Source: Thermoanaerobaculum sp.
GTDB lineage: Bacteria > Acidobacteriota > Thermoanaerobaculia > Multivoradales > UBA5704
NCBI GenBank assembly: GCA_021154885.1
Contig: JAJKHS010000032.1
Location: forward strand, 46,833-110,832
Direction: 5' to 3'
Length of the DNA stretch: 64,000 nt
Shown in pieces: positions 39,637 to 55,263 of the stretch; the first letter of the stretch is position 1, and each line of letters begins with the position of its first letter. The position numbers and the translations under genes are program-made. The notes under the pieces are model-generated. The model ran no database searches. It worked only from the letters and a program-made list of their open reading frames with translations, and had not been told where the DNA came from.

Positions 39637-41793
39637 TCAGTCTACCCGGGTGGCCAGCGGATCGCCGTAGAAACAGTAGGCCGCGTAGGTGTCCTCGCCG
39701 CCATCGGGGGCGTAGGACTTGGCCCGCAGATCGCGCAGGATGGCGGCGAAAGGCGTCGCCGGTTCGGCCTTGACCCGGCGATAGAACTCCACGGCGATCT
39801 CGTGGGCGATCGTGTCCTTGACGCTCCAGAGCGGGGCGATGACGGCGCTGGCACCGAGGGCCATGAGTTCCTCGGCAAAGCCGCCGGTACCCACCAGCGC
39901 GGGCTCCTGCCGGCCGACTTCGCAGGCGTTGAGGAAGACCAGGGGCCTGGAGGTCGCGAAGCCCTTCTCGATGCCCGGCATGGCGGCGAGCGCGCTGGAG
40001 TAGAGCTCCTGCTTCTGATCCATGACGAGCACCTGGCTGCCGCCGTCGCCGCTCTTGCCGTGGCAGACGAAGTGGAGGAGAGCCCGGCCTTGCTGCTGGA
40101 AAGCTTGGTCCAGTGCCCTGGCGGAGGCAGGATCGATTCGCATTCCATGGAAACCCTCCACGACCACCTTGGCCTCATTCTCGGCGGCTCCGAGCCTGGA
40201 GTCACGCGGAGCTACTACATAGGCGTCGCGCAGCGGGATTTTTTGTGGCGGATGGATGTCGTCGTCGGAGGTCCAGCGGCTCAGCAGGAACTCGATGCCC
40301 AGCGGCTCGCGTTTCTGGAGCTTGCCGCCAGGAGGCCGTCGGTTTGGCACCATCAGCTCCCAGGGAATATTGGGCTCTTGGGTGATAATGGAGATCGTCT
40401 TCGGCGGCTTGCCGGAATCGATCAACTCCCAGAAAACTTTCTGGAAGAGGGTTGGCGCGGCCTTGAAAAGTTTCAGCCCGGCGCCACGCAGGGCCGTCGT
40501 GCGGTCCCAGTCACTCGCTCCCTTGGCGGTGAACTGGACCATCTGCTGGCGTACCAGGTCCCGGGCCAGGCTGCTCAGCCGCCACTTTTCGATGACGCCG
40601 TCCTGGTAGGAAGGGAGTAGGGACGTCTGGATCTTGCATTGGAAATTGCGTTCGTCGGTGGCCGATGCGACGATCTGGACATTGAGGTCTGCCGGCTGGG
40701 CTGAAGCCTCGACTCGCACGATCGGGCGGCTTGCCGGCGTCTCTTCCTGAGCTTCCGTGGTCAGAGGAACGGCGCGGCTCACCTTGCCGCAGGCTCGTCC
40801 GTTGTAGGCGAAGAGGGCCGAGAATGTCGCGGTCCCGGTTCCTCCGCCCTTCTTGCGGACGACCGTGAACACGGCCGATTCCGAGCGCTCCTGGTCGCGA
40901 AGGATGGTCAGCTCCTGGATAACGGGTCCCTCAACTTCAAAGGGTTTCTCGACCACCAGCCAGACGTTCAAGTCGAACTGCGTCTGATCAGGAGAGACCT
41001 CCAGGACCACGTCCTCTCCCTCTTCCCCTCTGCGCAGCGCCCCGATGTCGGTGTATACAGAGACCTGGATCTGAGCGTCTGCCGCGGGCGGCGGGGGATC
41101 GAGATCCATGTGTGGCGTGCGCCGGAGGATCTCAGAGGCCATATGATCGGAGGTCGCCCGAGTTGGTTCCAAATGGGGCTCAGGATCCGGAGGGGCCAGG
41201 CTCATCGCATTGCGCGAGTCAGAAGTCCTGACGACGTTCTCGGCAGCCAAGCCCTTGGTTCCCTGTACCACGTCGAACTCCACGCGGTCACCCTCGGCGA
41301 GCGACTTGAAGCCGTTGCCCCGAATGGCCGAATGATGAACAAAGCAGTCCTTCTGCCCGTCCTCCGGGGTGATGAAACCGAAACCTTTACTGTCGTTGAA
41401 CCACTTCACTCTTCCGCGGCGCGGATGGGCCTCGTGGTCGCTGAGCGGTTCCTCGTAGGGAGGCCGTGCGCTGTCTATTCGCGCACGGTCGCCGTCAGGA
41501 CTGGGAAAATGTTCCCTCGGCTCAATTGGATGCTCTCTCTTGTCTGTTCGCTGGCGACCCGGGTCGGGAGTGGGCATTGAGTTGTCGACCGCCTTGGCGC
41601 TGTCAGTCTCCCTTCTGACCTTCGGAATCAGCTCCATCAGCTTCAGGAGATACCGTTCGGCGTTGGCACGGCGCCGGCCATTGAGAGCCACAACCTGCAG
41701 GAATAGGGTGCGGGCCGTGGCGAAGTCGCCGGTCTCGTAGGCGCGCTGGGCGGCCTGGAAGAGGCTCTCCTCGCGATCAGGCGATCCGCTCAC
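39637..41793 (-). CDS. CHAT-domain (caspase-like) protease fused to a cold-shock domain
   Basis: The cold-shock domain (CSD) covers residues ~127-189 ([31 protein letters not shown]..., nt 41227-41415). The CHAT dyad is His578 in [10 protein letters not shown] (nt 40060-40062) and Cys624 in VFLNACEVG (nt 39922-39924). IPWELM motif present. GTG start with an AAGGAG SD, overlapping the upstream gene by 17 nt. Confidence 0.85.
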
Positions 41794-47505: not shown

Positions 47506-48558
47506 TCAGCGGGAGGAGCTGGCCGTCGGCGTGGACTGTCCCGGCACGGCGTGAGCTCCCGCGGGCGTCGGAGATCCGTCCTGGTTCAACAGGAACCAGC
47601 CGGTGGCCAGCACGAAGACCATCAGCAGGAGGGTGGCCGCCAGCAGCAGCAGGGCACGACGATGATCCCTCTCGCCGGCGTCGGACTGAGGCCGGGCCGG
47701 CGCTGCGGCGACCGGCCGGGGGGCGCCGGGGAAGACCTCCAACCGTCCTTCTTCCGCGGGGAGCGGCGGGCTCGTCCGCGGCCGGACCCCGGAGCTGCCA
47801 TCCGTGCGGACCGCCTCGCGCAGGGCCTCCGCCATCTCCGCGGCGCTGGCGTAACGGGCGCTGGGCTCCTGGCTGGTGGCGCGGGCCAGGACCCGGAAGA
47901 GCGGATCCCGCACCCCCAGGCCTCCCTGGCTGCGCAGCGAGCCGGCGAAGGTCAGGCGCCGCAGCAGCGAGCCCACGGCATAGAGGTCGCTCTGCACCGT
48001 GTAGAGCTCCCCCGCGAGCTGCTCGGGGGGCAGGGTGAGCAGCGGATCGAAGACGAGCTGCGTCAAGCCGAAGCCGGTGAGCACCAGGTGACCCTCCGGC
48101 GCGAGAACGACCTCGTCCTCGGCGATGTGCCGGTGCAGGATCCCCTCGGCATGGGCCTCGGCCAGGATCTCCAGGAGCTGGCCCCCCCAGTCGATCAGCG
48201 TCGCCCGGTCCGGCCGCTCGCCCTGGGCGAGCAGGTCGTGCAAGGAACGCCCCTCGGTCTCGGCGAAAGCCACCAGCAGCGAGCCGTCGTACTCGGCGAC
48301 CTCCAGCAGGGCGGGCAGACCGCGATGGTAGATCCGTCCCAGGGCCTCGGTCTCGGCGAGCAGGATTTCCCACGAGGCAGCCTCCTGCCAGGAGCCTGGC
48401 CGGGAGGCCGGAATCACCTTCAGGATCGACGTCCGGTCGCTGCGGGTGTCCGCCGCGAGATAGGCCATCCCGAACGGAGCCGGCCCCAGATCCTCCAGGA
48501 CCTGATAGGGACCGATCTCCCGCACTCCTCGGATGACTGGTGTAGATAGCATGCCCAT
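47506..48558 (-). CDS. Membrane-anchored degenerate Ser/Thr kinase-like protein (probable pseudokinase)
   Basis: Kinase fold pattern (YQVLEDLGPAPFGMAYLA, ILKVI) with HRHIAEDE in place of HRDxxxxN and GFG in place of DFG. C-terminal TM LLLLAATLLLMVFVLATGWFLL. ATG 48558 has a GGAG SD. Confidence 0.6.
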   Translation of the reverse strand: MGMLSTPVIRGVREIGPYQVLEDLGPAPFGMAYLAADTRSDRTSILKVIPASRPGSWQEAASWEILLAETEALGRIYHRGLPALLEVAEYDGSLLVAFAETEGRSLHDLLAQGERPDRATLIDWGGQLLEILAEAHAEGILHRHIAEDEVVLAPEGHLVLTGFGLTQLVFDPLLTLPPEQLAGELYTVQSDLYAVGSLLRRLTFAGSLRSQGGLGVRDPLFRVLARATSQEPSARYASAAEMAEALREAVRTDGSSGVRPRTSPPLPAEEGRLEVFPGAPRPVAAAPARPQSDAGERDHRRALLLLAATLLLMVFVLATGWFLLNQDGSPTPAGAHAVPGQSTPTASSSR

Positions 48559-48814
48559 GGCTCGCTCCATGCGGCTTCGGACCGACCGCCAAACTTCTGG
48601 GGGACCCGAAGCTGCAAGCTCCATGCAAGGCCGGCGGCGGCGGGACGGCTCCGATCGCGCAGACGATCTCGCGAGCCATCGAGCCGATGTCTTTCGGCTA
48701 CTACTGAAAGTGCGGGGGGTGGGAGGAAGAGGGACAAGTGGCCGGAGCGTCGTTCGCGATCCGCTTCCCGATCCGCAGGGTGGCGTCGATCGGGAGGTCG
48801 CCGTGCCGGCGGAG

Positions 48815-48882
48815 CCCTCATCACCCCGGCCCTCTTCTCCCAGCCTCCCCCCCGTCCGCCGGGAGAAGAGGGAGTGGTTAGT
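48815..48882 (+). repeat. Solo copy of the 68-bp repeat unit (CCCTCATCACCCCGGCCCTCTTCTCCCAGCCTCCCCCCCGTCCGCCGGGAGAAGAGGGAGTGGTTAGT)
   Basis: Near-identical to 51655-51722 and 54561-54627, and in inverted orientation to 55188-55254. It contains an internal 12-bp inverted repeat, CCCTCTTCTCCC/GGGAGAAGAGGG. Confidence 0.85.
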
Positions 48883-49175: not shown

Positions 49176-49382
49176 GGATTGTTTTGAACGTTTCGAGCAT
49201 CGCCAAGATTTGCCTGCAATGTTCCGGGAGCTCAGCCCCGAAGGGGATTGTTTTTGAAACGCTTCGAGCATCGCCGAGATTCGCCTGCAATGTCCGGGAG
49301 CCAGGCCCGAAGGGGCGAAAGCATGTAGCCAGGGGCGTCAGCCCCAGGTAGGTCGCCGAAAAGAAACCTTAGCCCCGAAGGG
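49176..49382. repeat. Three tandem 69-bp units on the CRISPR flank (two similar, the third diverged), each ending in GCCCCGAAGG or GGCCCGAAGG
   Basis: Units are 49176-49244, 49245-49313 and 49314-49382. Units 1 and 2 align along their full length with few differences. Confidence 0.7.
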
Positions 49383-49430
49383 GCGGCAGCAGCGTTTGCC
49401 GAGCCGGTCTGCTGCCGCCCCTTCGGGGCT
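49371..49430. terminator. Perfect 22-bp inverted repeat (16-nt loop) 11 nt from the first CRISPR repeat
   Basis: 49371-49392 (agccccgaaggggcggcagcag) is the exact reverse complement of 49409-49430. This position would terminate a minus-strand pre-crRNA. There is no clear U-run. Confidence 0.45.
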
Positions 49431-49441
49431 GTGGGTGATGT

Positions 49442-50014
49442 GTCCCAATCCCACCGTACTGCTCAGGGCAATTCCGAGACAGGGAGCTCGTCCAGCTCTT
49501 TGGCCTGCGAACCCCAGTCGCAATCCCACCGTACTGCTCAGGGCAATTCCGAGCGCAACGCCGGCATGCATGTCGTCCAGAGCACCGACCCGAGTCGCAA
49601 TCCCACCGTACTGCTCAGGGCAATTCCGAGTTGTTTCCAATGAACTGACAGAGTTGATGGATGCGGTAGTCGCAATCCCACCGTACTGCTCAGGGCAATT
49701 CCGAGCAACGACAGGAGCAACCACGTGAAAATGCACAAGCCGAATCTGTCGCAATCCCACCGTACTGCTCAGGGCAATTCCGAGTCAAAGCGATTTCAAC
49801 AGCACTGTCGGAGATCTCGCCGACTTGTCGCAATCCCACCGTACTGCTCAGGGCAATTCCGAGGTTCACCAAGGCCGGCCAGACCGTCAAGCTGTTTGTC
49901 GAGTCGCAATCCCACCGTACTGCTCAGGGCAATTCCGAGGAACTGTACGGATGCCATTCTTTCGCCTGTCCCGGGAAGTCGCAATCCCACCGTACTGCTC
50001 AGGGCAATTCCGAG
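49442..50014 (-). CRISPR. CRISPR array: 8 x 37-bp repeats, 7 spacers (38-42 bp); no cas genes in this window
   Basis: The plus-strand repeat is GTCGCAATCCCACCGTACTGCTCAGGGCAATTCCGAG, at 49442 (one mismatch), 49517, 49594, 49669, 49748, 49827, 49903 and 49978. Spacers are unique and of lower GC. Minus-strand orientation is inferred from three things: the degenerate repeat at the left end, the lower-GC non-coding flank on the right, and the minus-strand repeat ending in ATTGCGAC (similar to the ATTGAAAC handle). Confidence 0.93.
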
Positions 50015-50350
50015 GTACCCCTTTCCAAGAGTCTGAATCTACGTGGGTTAGGGTGCCTGTTTTTCCAACCTCCTCGGAACGACGACGTTTTTCCTCTCCG
50101 GTGCTTCGTCCCAGCCTGTTCCAAGAACAGGTAACCCTTTGAAGCGGTTCGGGTTAGCATCCGATTTCCAACCGATGTGCCAAAATGGCGAATCGGCGCT
50201 GGCATGATTCTTGTCAGGCGAGGCGCTTCAGTTGTCAAGGAACGAGACCTCTTATCCTTTCTCCTATCTTAAGAGACTCTGGTCGGCAAGGCAAGCGGGC
50301 CGGTCATCAGGGCTGAGTCCGGGCTTTTCTTCAGCCTATGGGGGCCGGGG
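50015..50350 (-). promoter_or_regulatory. Putative CRISPR leader (non-coding, relatively AT-rich)
   Basis: ~335 bp without a convincing ORF, with markedly lower GC than the neighbours, adjacent to the non-degenerate end of the array. Confidence 0.35.
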
Positions 50351-50455: not shown

Positions 50456-51721
50456 ATGAACCTCCTCACCCTCCTCCTTCTCCTCCCCACCCCCGACCTC
50501 CTCGTCCCCCCCTCCTGGATCGCGGAGCATCGCGCCATCCCGGTGGACGTGCGGCCGGCGGCGGCGTTCGCGGCGGGACATCTGCCGGGGGCGGTGCGGG
50601 TGGCGGTGGCGCCGGAGTGCGTGGCGGCGGGGGTGGGGTGTGTGCAGAGGGAGCTTGGGAAGGCTGGGCTTGGAGGGGAGGAGGCGGTGGTGGTGGTCGG
50701 GGAGGACGGCGCGGCGGTGGGGGAGGCGTTCTGGCTGCTGGAGTGGGCGGGATTGAAACAGGTGAAGGTGCTCGACGGTGTGGTCGATGCGAAGGGACCC
50801 GAGGAGGGACTGGGGAGGCGGGAGGCGCGAGCGTTTACGGCGCGGGCGTCGGAATCGGCCGCGGCGGACGTGGCCTGGGTCCGGGCCCGAGTGGGAACGA
50901 AGGGGGTGGAGTTTCTGGACCTGAGGGACGAGGGGATCTGGATGGAGAAGGACTACGAGGCGCCGGCGCGGTTCGCGGCCGGGCATCTCCCCCACGCGTT
51001 GCCGTTTGATTTCCGGCGGTGGGTTCCCCGGGACGGCCGGTGGCCGGAGGCTGGCAGGGTGTGGGAGACGCTCAAGCGGCTGGGACCGCGCGAGGTGACG
51101 AAGGTCGATGCCAAGGCTGAATTCGTGCTCTACGGGGACGGGCCGGCGGATCTGCAGCCGGGGCTCGGGTATCTGCTGCTGCGGCGCGCGGGAATCCCCG
51201 TGCGGGTCTTCCCCGGCGGTTTCCAGGAATGGTCCAAGGACCCGGCGAACCCGGTGGTGCGCATCGTGGGCGCGCCGGAGGTCGACCGGCTCTTGGAGGT
51301 GGAGAACCCCGGGCTGAAGGGGGACGAGGTGGCGCGCTCGGTGGTGGTGCTCGACCTGCGGGAGGCGCGGGACTTCAAGCTCGGGCACATCCCGGGGGCG
51401 TACAACTTTCCGGCCTATACGGAGGGGAGGTCGATCGAGAAGGTAATGGAGGAGAGATGGCCGCAGGCCAGGGCCACGCGGGCGCCGGTGGTCCTCTATT
51501 GCTATGGCCGGCCGTGCATCCGCAGCCGCGACGCCGCGGCCCGGCTGGCGCGGGCGGGGTTCACGAATCTGCTGTGGCTGCGGGAGGGGATGGAGGCCTG
51601 GAGGGAGGCGGGGTTGCCGGTGGCGGGGGGACCCCGGAACGCCCCCGCCCCAGACCCTCATCACCCCGGCCCTCTTCTCCCAGCCTCCCCCCCGTCCGCC
51701 GGGAGAAGAGGGAGGGGTTAG
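50456..51721 (+). CDS. Multi-rhodanese-domain sulfurtransferase-like protein
   Basis: Three rhodanese-like segments (AAGHLPGAVRV, FAAGHLPHALPFD, FKLGHIPGAYNFP ... LYCYGRPCIRS...GFTNLLWLREGMEAWREAGLPV). The last ~25 codons run into the repeat element. Confidence 0.75.
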   Translation: MNLLTLLLLLPTPDLLVPPSWIAEHRAIPVDVRPAAAFAAGHLPGAVRVAVAPECVAAGVGCVQRELGKAGLGGEEAVVVVGEDGAAVGEAFWLLEWAGLKQVKVLDGVVDAKGPEEGLGRREARAFTARASESAAADVAWVRARVGTKGVEFLDLRDEGIWMEKDYEAPARFAAGHLPHALPFDFRRWVPRDGRWPEAGRVWETLKRLGPREVTKVDAKAEFVLYGDGPADLQPGLGYLLLRRAGIPVRVFPGGFQEWSKDPANPVVRIVGAPEVDRLLEVENPGLKGDEVARSVVVLDLREARDFKLGHIPGAYNFPAYTEGRSIEKVMEERWPQARATRAPVVLYCYGRPCIRSRDAAARLARAGFTNLLWLREGMEAWREAGLPVAGGPRNAPAPDPHHPGPLLPASPPSAGRRGRG

Positions 51722-54551: not shown

Positions 54552-55263
54552 CGGCGGGGCCCTCATCACCCCGGCCCTCTTCTCCCAGCCTCCCCCCCGT
54601 CCGCCGGGAGAAGAGGGAGTGGTTAGTCTGAAACAAGCAGAAGCAAGAACCCCCTGGGACCGCCGGCGTCCCGCCGGCCACTTACTCCGTTTTTCTTGAA
54701 AACGTCAAGGGCTTCGACGGTAGTAAAGGTCACGGATGGTTTCTAGGACGGATTCCAGGTGCTCGTGGATCTCGCGGTTGGTGGCACGGAGGACTCGGTA
54801 GCCAAGGACCTGGAGATTGGCATCGCGGTTGACGTCGTGGGAGATCTGAGATTTCTCTTCATGGATGGAGCCGTCCAGCTCCAGGATCAGTCTCAACTCG
54901 TGGCAGTAGAAGTCGGCTACATAGGGACCGATCGGCACTTGGCGGCGAAACTTGAGGCCGAGGAGCCTCCGGTCCCGCAGATGCTCCCAGAGAGACTCCT
55001 CACTGGGAGTCGTCATCCGCCGTAGCCGCCGCGCACGAACCTGGGCACCCCTGTTGGGAATACGCATCCAAAGAGAATATCCCAAAGCGGAATTTTTTTG
55101 CTTTGGGAAAGAGCTTTAAGAAAAAACGGAGTAAGTGGCCGGCGGGACGCCGGCGGTCCCAGGGGTTCTTGCTTCTGCTTGTTTCAGACTAACCACTCCC
55201 TCTTCTCCCGGCGGGTGGGGGGGAGGCCGGGAGAAGAGGGCCGGGGTGATGAGGGCCCCGCGG
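54552..55263. mobile_element. Candidate TIR-bounded cassette: ~148-bp near-perfect terminal inverted repeats flanking a DUF559 endonuclease gene
   Basis: 54552-54700 is the reverse complement of 55116-55263 with only a few mismatches or indels. The outer ~70 bp of each arm is the repeat-family unit also found at 48815 and 51655. No target-site duplication is evident. Confidence 0.5.
54705..55085 (-). CDS. DUF559 (Vsr/restriction-endonuclease-like) domain protein
   Basis: EESLWEHLRDRRLLGLKFRRQVPIGPYVADFYCHELRLILELDGSIH...VLGYRVLRATNREI is the classic DUF559 pattern. Lower GC than the flanks. Confidence 0.85.
   Translation of the reverse strand: MGYSLWMRIPNRGAQVRARRLRRMTTPSEESLWEHLRDRRLLGLKFRRQVPIGPYVADFYCHELRLILELDGSIHEEKSQISHDVNRDANLQVLGYRVLRATNREIHEHLESVLETIRDLYYRRSP

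Follow-up and report, generated by a model that had tools for sequence, protein, structure and literature searches.

A dispersed CRISPR array of Thermoanaerobaculum sp., distant from cas genes and most likely used in trans by a type III-B (Cmr) system

The array and its chromosomal site

The window, that is, the whole 64-kb stretch of DNA that was analysed (G000:C32:46833-110832), carries a CRISPR array at positions 96,274-96,846 of the 199,634-nt contig C32. Eight direct repeats of 37 nt recur in it with a period of 75-79 nt and enclose seven spacers, all of them unique, with lengths of 38, 39, 42, 42, 38, 40 and 38 nt. The array and its surroundings comprise the following features, in the coordinates of the window:

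39637-41793, minus strand: CHAT protease with an embedded cold-shock domain (Pfam CSD and CHAT)
47506-48624: kinase-fold protein (Pfam)
49176..49441, no strand assigned: trailer flank, tandem 69-71-nt units with GCCCCGAAGGGGC hairpins
49303-49348, minus strand: Acido-Lenti-1 element (RF01687) within the tandem units at 49176-49315, Rfam score 37.8 bits (gathering score, 37)
49442..50014, probably minus strand: CRISPR array, eight 37-nt repeats and seven spacers of 38-42 nt
49442-49478, probably minus strand: trailer-end (oldest) repeat, degenerate at one base, …GGGATTGGGAC in the crRNA sense
50015..50324, probably minus strand: leader, about 310 nt homologous to the cas6-proximal leader on contig C113
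50351-51721: rhodanese protein (Pfam)

On the plus strand, the repeat reads GTCGCAATCCCACCGTACTGCTCAGGGCAATTCCGAG and is identical in seven of the eight copies. The leftmost copy reads GTCCCAAT and differs from the other seven by the G-to-C change that the first-pass annotation had ascribed to it. In the crRNA sense, on the minus strand, the repeat is CTCGGAATTGCCCTGAGCAGTACGGTGGGATTGCGAC, with ATTGCGAC as its 3′ end. The locus thus combines identical direct repeats in the 23-50-nt range with unique spacers of similar length, and a conserved leader at one end with a degenerate repeat at the other, as is expected of a CRISPR array. The exact sevenfold recurrence of a 37-mer cannot be a matter of chance, and the reversed repeat, used as a control pattern for the whole assembly, gave 0 matches; the array described in the first-pass annotation is therefore real. 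The lower GC content of its spacers had also been read correctly (a mean of 0.55 vs. 0.68 for the genome). The self-complementarity proposed for the repeat termini held only in part: paired termini do exist, but the fold energy was no better than that of shuffled sequence on either strand, so that no structure is claimed for the repeat. In the Rfam scan, the repeat matched no CRISPR-DR family.

The kinase-fold and rhodanese proteins that had been named as neighbours of the array were both recognised by Pfam. Synteny with three related genomes (G006, G063 and G064) covers the ligA region and the rhodanese gene, the right-hand neighbour of the leader. It ends at the leader, and the orthologous site in G006 and G063 has no array. 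On the other side of the array, the trailer is made of the tandem hairpin units listed above, and a related GCCCCGAAGGGGC-hairpin sequence follows the arrays on contigs C81 and C113, which makes it look like a REP-like dispersed element. The trailer units are a repeated element of this kind and lie outside the CRISPR mechanism. Taken together, the synteny break at the leader and the REP-like units in the trailer indicate that array and leader came to lie here through a rearrangement within this lineage.

Another repeated element was noticed nearby. A sequence of 60-80 nt at the 3′ end of the rhodanese ORF (51640-51721) is also found at 48802-48874, 54558-54619 and 55196-55257 of the window, and it recurs with 92-100% identity at dozens of sites in the genome and in most genomes of the genus. 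Its frequent position at contig ends makes it a probable MITE or REP family by which assemblies become fragmented.

The CHAT protein lies 7.6 kb from the array and, as the first-pass annotation had stated, has no Cas7-11 near it. CHAT proteases partner with type III systems elsewhere, and one could suppose that the array works with this local, non-canonical partner, or that it has a regulatory, non-immune role. We consider either idea highly improbable. Proximity to the CSD-CHAT gene is the sole point in favour of a local partner, and it is outweighed by the lack of a SAVED domain or any other cOA sensor in the protein, by the absence of a Cas7-11 neighbour, by the wholly different neighbours of the sister arrays described below, and by the position of the array at a synteny break where relatives have none. 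The CSD-CHAT operon did not co-occur with the repeat family in any of the 15 related loci examined, and on these grounds, together with the missing SAVED domain, the CSD-CHAT protein, which shows no link to the array, was rejected as its partner. The CHAT proteins that are linked to CRISPR in this genome are SAVED-CHAT fusions encoded on other contigs. As to a regulatory role, no spacer matches the host genome.

No cas gene had been seen in the window, and the same is true of the whole of contig C32, where neither HMM searches for Cas1, Cas2, RAMP proteins and Cas6 nor tblastn with the cas proteins of the lineage gave a match. The first-pass annotation had allowed for a cas operon immediately beyond the window; there is none anywhere on C32, so that the distance to the closest cas gene exceeds 96 kb, unless that gene is on another contig.

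Sister arrays and type III-B genes on other contigs

The whole assembly (G000; 8.2 Mb, 161 contigs, 96.6% complete) was searched for the repeat pattern allowing one mismatch, and for cas operons, and yielded four more arrays, a Cas6 and two cmr clusters, all on other contigs. The repeat family amounts to 50 repeats with at most one mismatch in five arrays:

C32 (window): 8 repeats
C81: 10 repeats
C113: 7 repeats
C116: 12 repeats
C129: 13 repeats

The five arrays hold 45 spacers, all unique, with a GC content of 0.54 over the family. None of the 45 matched the host genome outside the arrays, and a search of the same spacers, N-linked and in distant mode, against a phage database gave no match; the central 22-mers of four spacers from the window had 0 matches in IMG/VR. 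A k-mer screen brought up other candidate arrays in the genome, which were rejected as CRISPRs because they are plain tandem repeats of 21, 62 or 83 nt.

When the flanks of the five arrays were aligned, one side proved conserved over about 200-310 nt, which in the window is the right side of the array. The leader core, at about 50034-50215, is common to all five arrays with 80-92% identity, and leaders in other species are 77-90% identical to it. The opposite flank is unconserved, and it is there that degenerate repeats occur in C32 and C129. A one-sided conserved leader with degenerate repeats opposite fixes the orientation, thus indicating that the window array is probably transcribed on the minus strand, in line with the first-pass reading of a repeat that ends in ATTGCGAC. 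Private repeat variants suggest, furthermore, that the arrays grew where they are, each through the copying of its first repeat: a T-to-C variant is present in all 10 repeats of C81, and a variant private to C113 is confined to its two leader-proximal repeats.

The cas6 and cmr genes located in the genome are the following:

C113, 4127-5227: Cas6 (PF10040, E=3e-15), directly followed by the leader and the C113 array
C139, 8028-14616: cmr cluster in the order Cmr2-Cmr3-Cmr1-Cmr4-Cmr5-Cmr6 (NCBIfam)
C47, 3446-8378: cmr cluster in the order Cmr1-Cmr2-Cmr3-Cmr4 (NCBIfam)
C47, 8383-9848: cmr5 and cmr6, placed via gene order, a RAMP match and a weak tblastn resemblance to their counterparts on C139

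The Cas6 is the single one detected in the genome and adjoins an array of identical repeats; it was found with PF10040, and the profile PF01881 gave no match in the genome. RAMP proteins cluster on C139 and C47. The two Cmr modules (C47:917-11071 and C139:5819-14616) are divergent, with about 30% identity, and they, like the Cas6, consist of intact open frames. Both Cmr2 proteins, as read from their sequences, keep the GGDD motif and have no N-terminal HD domain. The genome thus encodes Cas10/Cmr2 together with Cmr1, 3, 4, 5 and 6, as required of a type III-B system.

Proteins with a SAVED domain lie beside both modules. According to Pfam, the protein encoded upstream of the C47 cmr cluster has CHAT and SAVED domains, and a 408-aa protein encoded downstream of it has a SAVED domain; its N-terminus looks TIR-like but went undetected as such by Pfam. 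A second CHAT-SAVED homologue is encoded on C139, divergently upstream of cmr2. On the same contig, about 630 nt past cmr6, a lone decayed repeat with six mismatches was found in sense orientation (C139:15247-15283).

An inverted motif, TCTACACACATCCTC…GAGGATGTGTGTA, is present in several copies in the 600 nt that separate cmr6 from the lone repeat (G000:C139:14700-15100); it may serve to bind a regulator or be what is left of a leader.

In the first-pass annotation, the window array was called an orphan. According to Bernheim et al. (2020, NAR, PMC7145637), an orphan array is one with no cas in the genome, while a distant one is separated from cas by over 20 kb and has its cognate cas elsewhere in the genome. 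Given the cognate Cas6 and the two Cmr clusters, the label is wrong at the level of the genome, and the array is to be called distant. A 64-kb window is unable to separate the two classes; the whole genome settles the question.

Related loci, adaptation genes and the type I-C locus

The same repeat family was found in nine other genomes of the genus (7 of 36 congeners initially, and 2 of a further 4). A scan based on Cas6 assigned the lineage to MAGs of Thermoanaerobaculia (Acidobacteriota). Four loci show how its arrays are placed with respect to cas genes:

L028: cas6-array-cas1 remnant-cas2-array-CHAT-cmr2, with a Cas6 91% identical to that of G000
L029 (= G002:C221): cas6-array(21)-cas1-cas2-array(28)-CHAT
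L033: array-cas1-cas2-array-cas6
L023 (= G012:C45): arrays flanking cmr2-3-1-4-5-6 on both sides, one directly after cmr6

The 330-aa protein between the two arrays of G002 is a Cas1 (PF01867, E=3e-90). Arrays thus abut cmr genes in L023 and L028, and G000 keeps the lone decayed repeat only, which occupies the same position as the L023 array that follows cmr6. The first-pass annotation had been right that the repeat looks type III-like. In congeneric Thermoanaerobaculia, the repeat is part of contiguous loci of the form cas6-array-cas1-cas2-array-SAVED-CHAT-cmr.

A locus of another build was met in a more distant Acidobacteriota MAG (L034, CAWCIU010000010.1, 10001-20926). A frameshifted cas6 is followed there by three cas6 fragments in alternation with six short arrays, and a CHAT gene lies downstream. 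It looks as if units of cas6, leader and array had been duplicated in tandem several times.

In G000, the adaptation genes of the family have decayed. The HMM search of the six-frame genome revealed one Cas1 and one full Cas2 in the assembly, both on contig C1, and tblastn with the G002 Cas1 retrieved from G000 the same type I-C Cas1 alone, at 35% identity. By HMM and tblastn, the dedicated cas1 of the 37-nt-repeat family is absent from the G000 assembly; at a completeness of 96.6%, this could be an assembly gap. Of cas2, short pieces remain on C120 and, on C81 and C116, upstream of the leader. In the alignment, all leaders have as their conserved 5′ edge (…TTCCTTGACAACT…) the 3′ end of the ancestral cas2, stop codon included. 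A single deletion of cas2 common to C81 and C116 would place the gain of spacers after the loss of cas2, but the deletion boundaries in the two arrays are not clearly the same. Since cas1 is absent and cas2 is fragmented, the arrays are probably a fixed memory now and do not grow.

The fragment on C120 (G000:C120:5205-5267, minus strand) is an isolated N-terminal piece of cas2, about 21-26 codons long; neither a leader nor an array adjoins it. It, too, speaks for a break-up of the adaptation module.

The Cas1 and Cas2 on C1 belong to a type I-C-like locus (G000:C1:53999-71648, cas3…cas7-cas1-cas2) with an array of about 137 repeats; the genes upstream of cas1-cas2 look, by their sequences, like I-C cas7, cas8c and cas3. 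Its repeat, GTCGCCCCCCGCGCGGGGGCGTGGATTGAAAC, is a 32-nt GC-rich hairpin repeat, canonical for I-C, and its spacers have a GC content of 0.62 vs. 0.54 in the III-B-type arrays. The window array itself was rejected as type I-C (32-nt hairpin repeat GTCGC…ATTGAAAC, spacers of about 34-35 nt, position beside cas3-cas5-cas8c-cas7-cas4-cas1-cas2), from which it differs in repeat sequence, repeat length and spacer length. One may still ask whether this resident system serves the array, by processing, interference or spacer acquisition, as no Cas1 and no full-length Cas2 are found in the assembly apart from its own, and both repeats have termini of the GTCGC…ATTG(A/C)(A/G)AC-like form. Such service is very unlikely. 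The I-C repeat as a whole is unrelated, the leaders have no similarity, and Cas5d processing in type I-C systems requires their own hairpin. Spacer acquisition by the I-C integrase is contradicted by the spacer lengths, which were as follows (mean length):

G000, 37-nt repeat family: 40.8 ± 2.5 nt (n=45)
L029, dedicated Cas1-Cas2 kept: 39.4 ± 2.5 nt (n=47)
L033, dedicated Cas1-Cas2 kept: 39.2 ± 2.6 nt (n=25)
G000, I-C array: 34.7 ± 1.4 nt (n=136)

The spacers of the family in G000 resemble those of L029 and L033, in contrast to those of the I-C array, which indicates that they were made by a dedicated integrase and not by the I-C one. This integrase was either lost later or is encoded in the part of the genome that is missing from the assembly.

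The same decay invites the suspicion that the window array is a silent relic, that is, a dispersed copy, untranscribed or unused, which has been decaying after the loss of the adaptation module. With eight repeats, the array is short, and all cas genes are a long way off; the assembly lacks the dedicated cas1 and has cas2 in fragments; the sigma-70 promoter scan of the leader found no consensus match; and two relatives lack an array at the orthologous site. We nevertheless regard a relic as unlikely. Seven of the eight repeats are identical to the cas6-adjacent repeats, the leader is conserved within the genome and across species to a degree far above the neutral intergenic expectation, and the Cas6 and both Cmr clusters are intact. 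The first-pass annotation had offered, besides a relic and non-canonical partners, that the array is serviced in trans by a distant cas locus, and it is this option that the results favour.

Proposed mode of action and relation to known systems

All this makes it very probable that the window array is one of five dispersed arrays of a type III-B (Cmr) system in the genome of an uncultured member of Thermoanaerobaculia, distant from its cas genes and used in trans; as the 161-contig assembly is probably a MAG, the linkage of the contigs with cas6, cmr and the array rests on binning. From what was observed of the array anatomy, of the co-occurrence in the genome, of synteny in relatives and of spacer lengths, we infer the following course of events. 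The array would be transcribed from its conserved leader on the minus strand of the window, and the single Cas6 (C113) would cut the pre-crRNA within each repeat, leaving the expected 8-nt 5′ tag AUUGCGAC. The crRNAs would then load into one or both of the Cmr1-6 complexes (C139 and C47). Upon binding of a complementary foreign RNA, the Cas10/Cmr2 cyclase would become active, and the cyclic oligoadenylate formed would switch on the neighbouring SAVED-CHAT proteases and the SAVED-domain protein. The spacers themselves would have come from the dedicated Cas1-Cas2, which in relatives still lies between the arrays.

A more far-reaching reading, to which we give little credence, is that the lineage broke its ancestral cas6-array-cas1-cas2-array-SAVED-CHAT-cmr super-locus into modules of leader and array scattered over the chromosome, which move as units, acquire spacers without the cognate Cas1-Cas2, or both. 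On this reading, the modules would sit at synteny breaks beside REP-like (Acido-Lenti-1) elements, some of them with cas2 fragments. They might move by recombination mediated by the repeated elements, and the arrays might still acquire spacers via the I-C integrase or an unassembled copy of Cas1-Cas2. If true, module mobility or borrowed acquisition would be a natural example of array dispersal and of the sharing of an adaptation module in type III systems.

As we see it, the window array is nothing out of the ordinary, a distant array that belongs to a type III-B system of a known kind, and the fragmentation of the locus with the decay of its adaptation genes is a mildly interesting side story. 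The main import of the work is a correct annotation, with little beyond. It adds an example from Thermoanaerobaculia (Acidobacteriota) of a type III-B system that has effectors of the SAVED-CHAT type and several dispersed arrays and whose adaptation module is decaying; surveys of type III signalling effectors and of array dispersal could make use of it.

Thermus thermophilus and Pyrococcus furiosus are type III hosts with multiple arrays that share Cas6-processed crRNAs, and so is Marinomonas mediterranea (PMC5576922). Just as in these hosts, the arrays described here are dispersed and belong to one repeat and leader family, with Cmr/Csm encoded elsewhere, and an 8-nt 5′ tag is expected from the 3′ end of the repeat. 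The tag predicted here is AUUGCGAC and not AUUGAAAG or AUUGAAAC.

Distant arrays make up about 23% of all CRISPRs and have on average 13 repeats, compared with 24 in arrays within loci (PMC7145637). The window array resembles them in lying more than 20 kb from a cas cluster, in having a repeat that matches a system elsewhere in the genome and in being shorter than cas-adjacent arrays. In essentials it agrees with them; what is particular to it is that its cognate system is split over several contigs (cas6 with an array, and two cmr clusters) and that the adaptation genes are degraded.

The closest characterised effector arrangement is that of the Haliangium ochraceum type III-B system with SAVED-CHAT and partners of the PCaspase type (Steens et al., bioRxiv 10.1101/2023.06.23.546230). 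Both systems have a Cmr1-6 operon with an adjacent SAVED-CHAT fusion and a Cmr2 with GGDD. What differs from Haliangium ochraceum is that the genome studied here encodes a pair of divergent Cmr modules, with a CHAT-SAVED protein for each and a separate SAVED protein besides.
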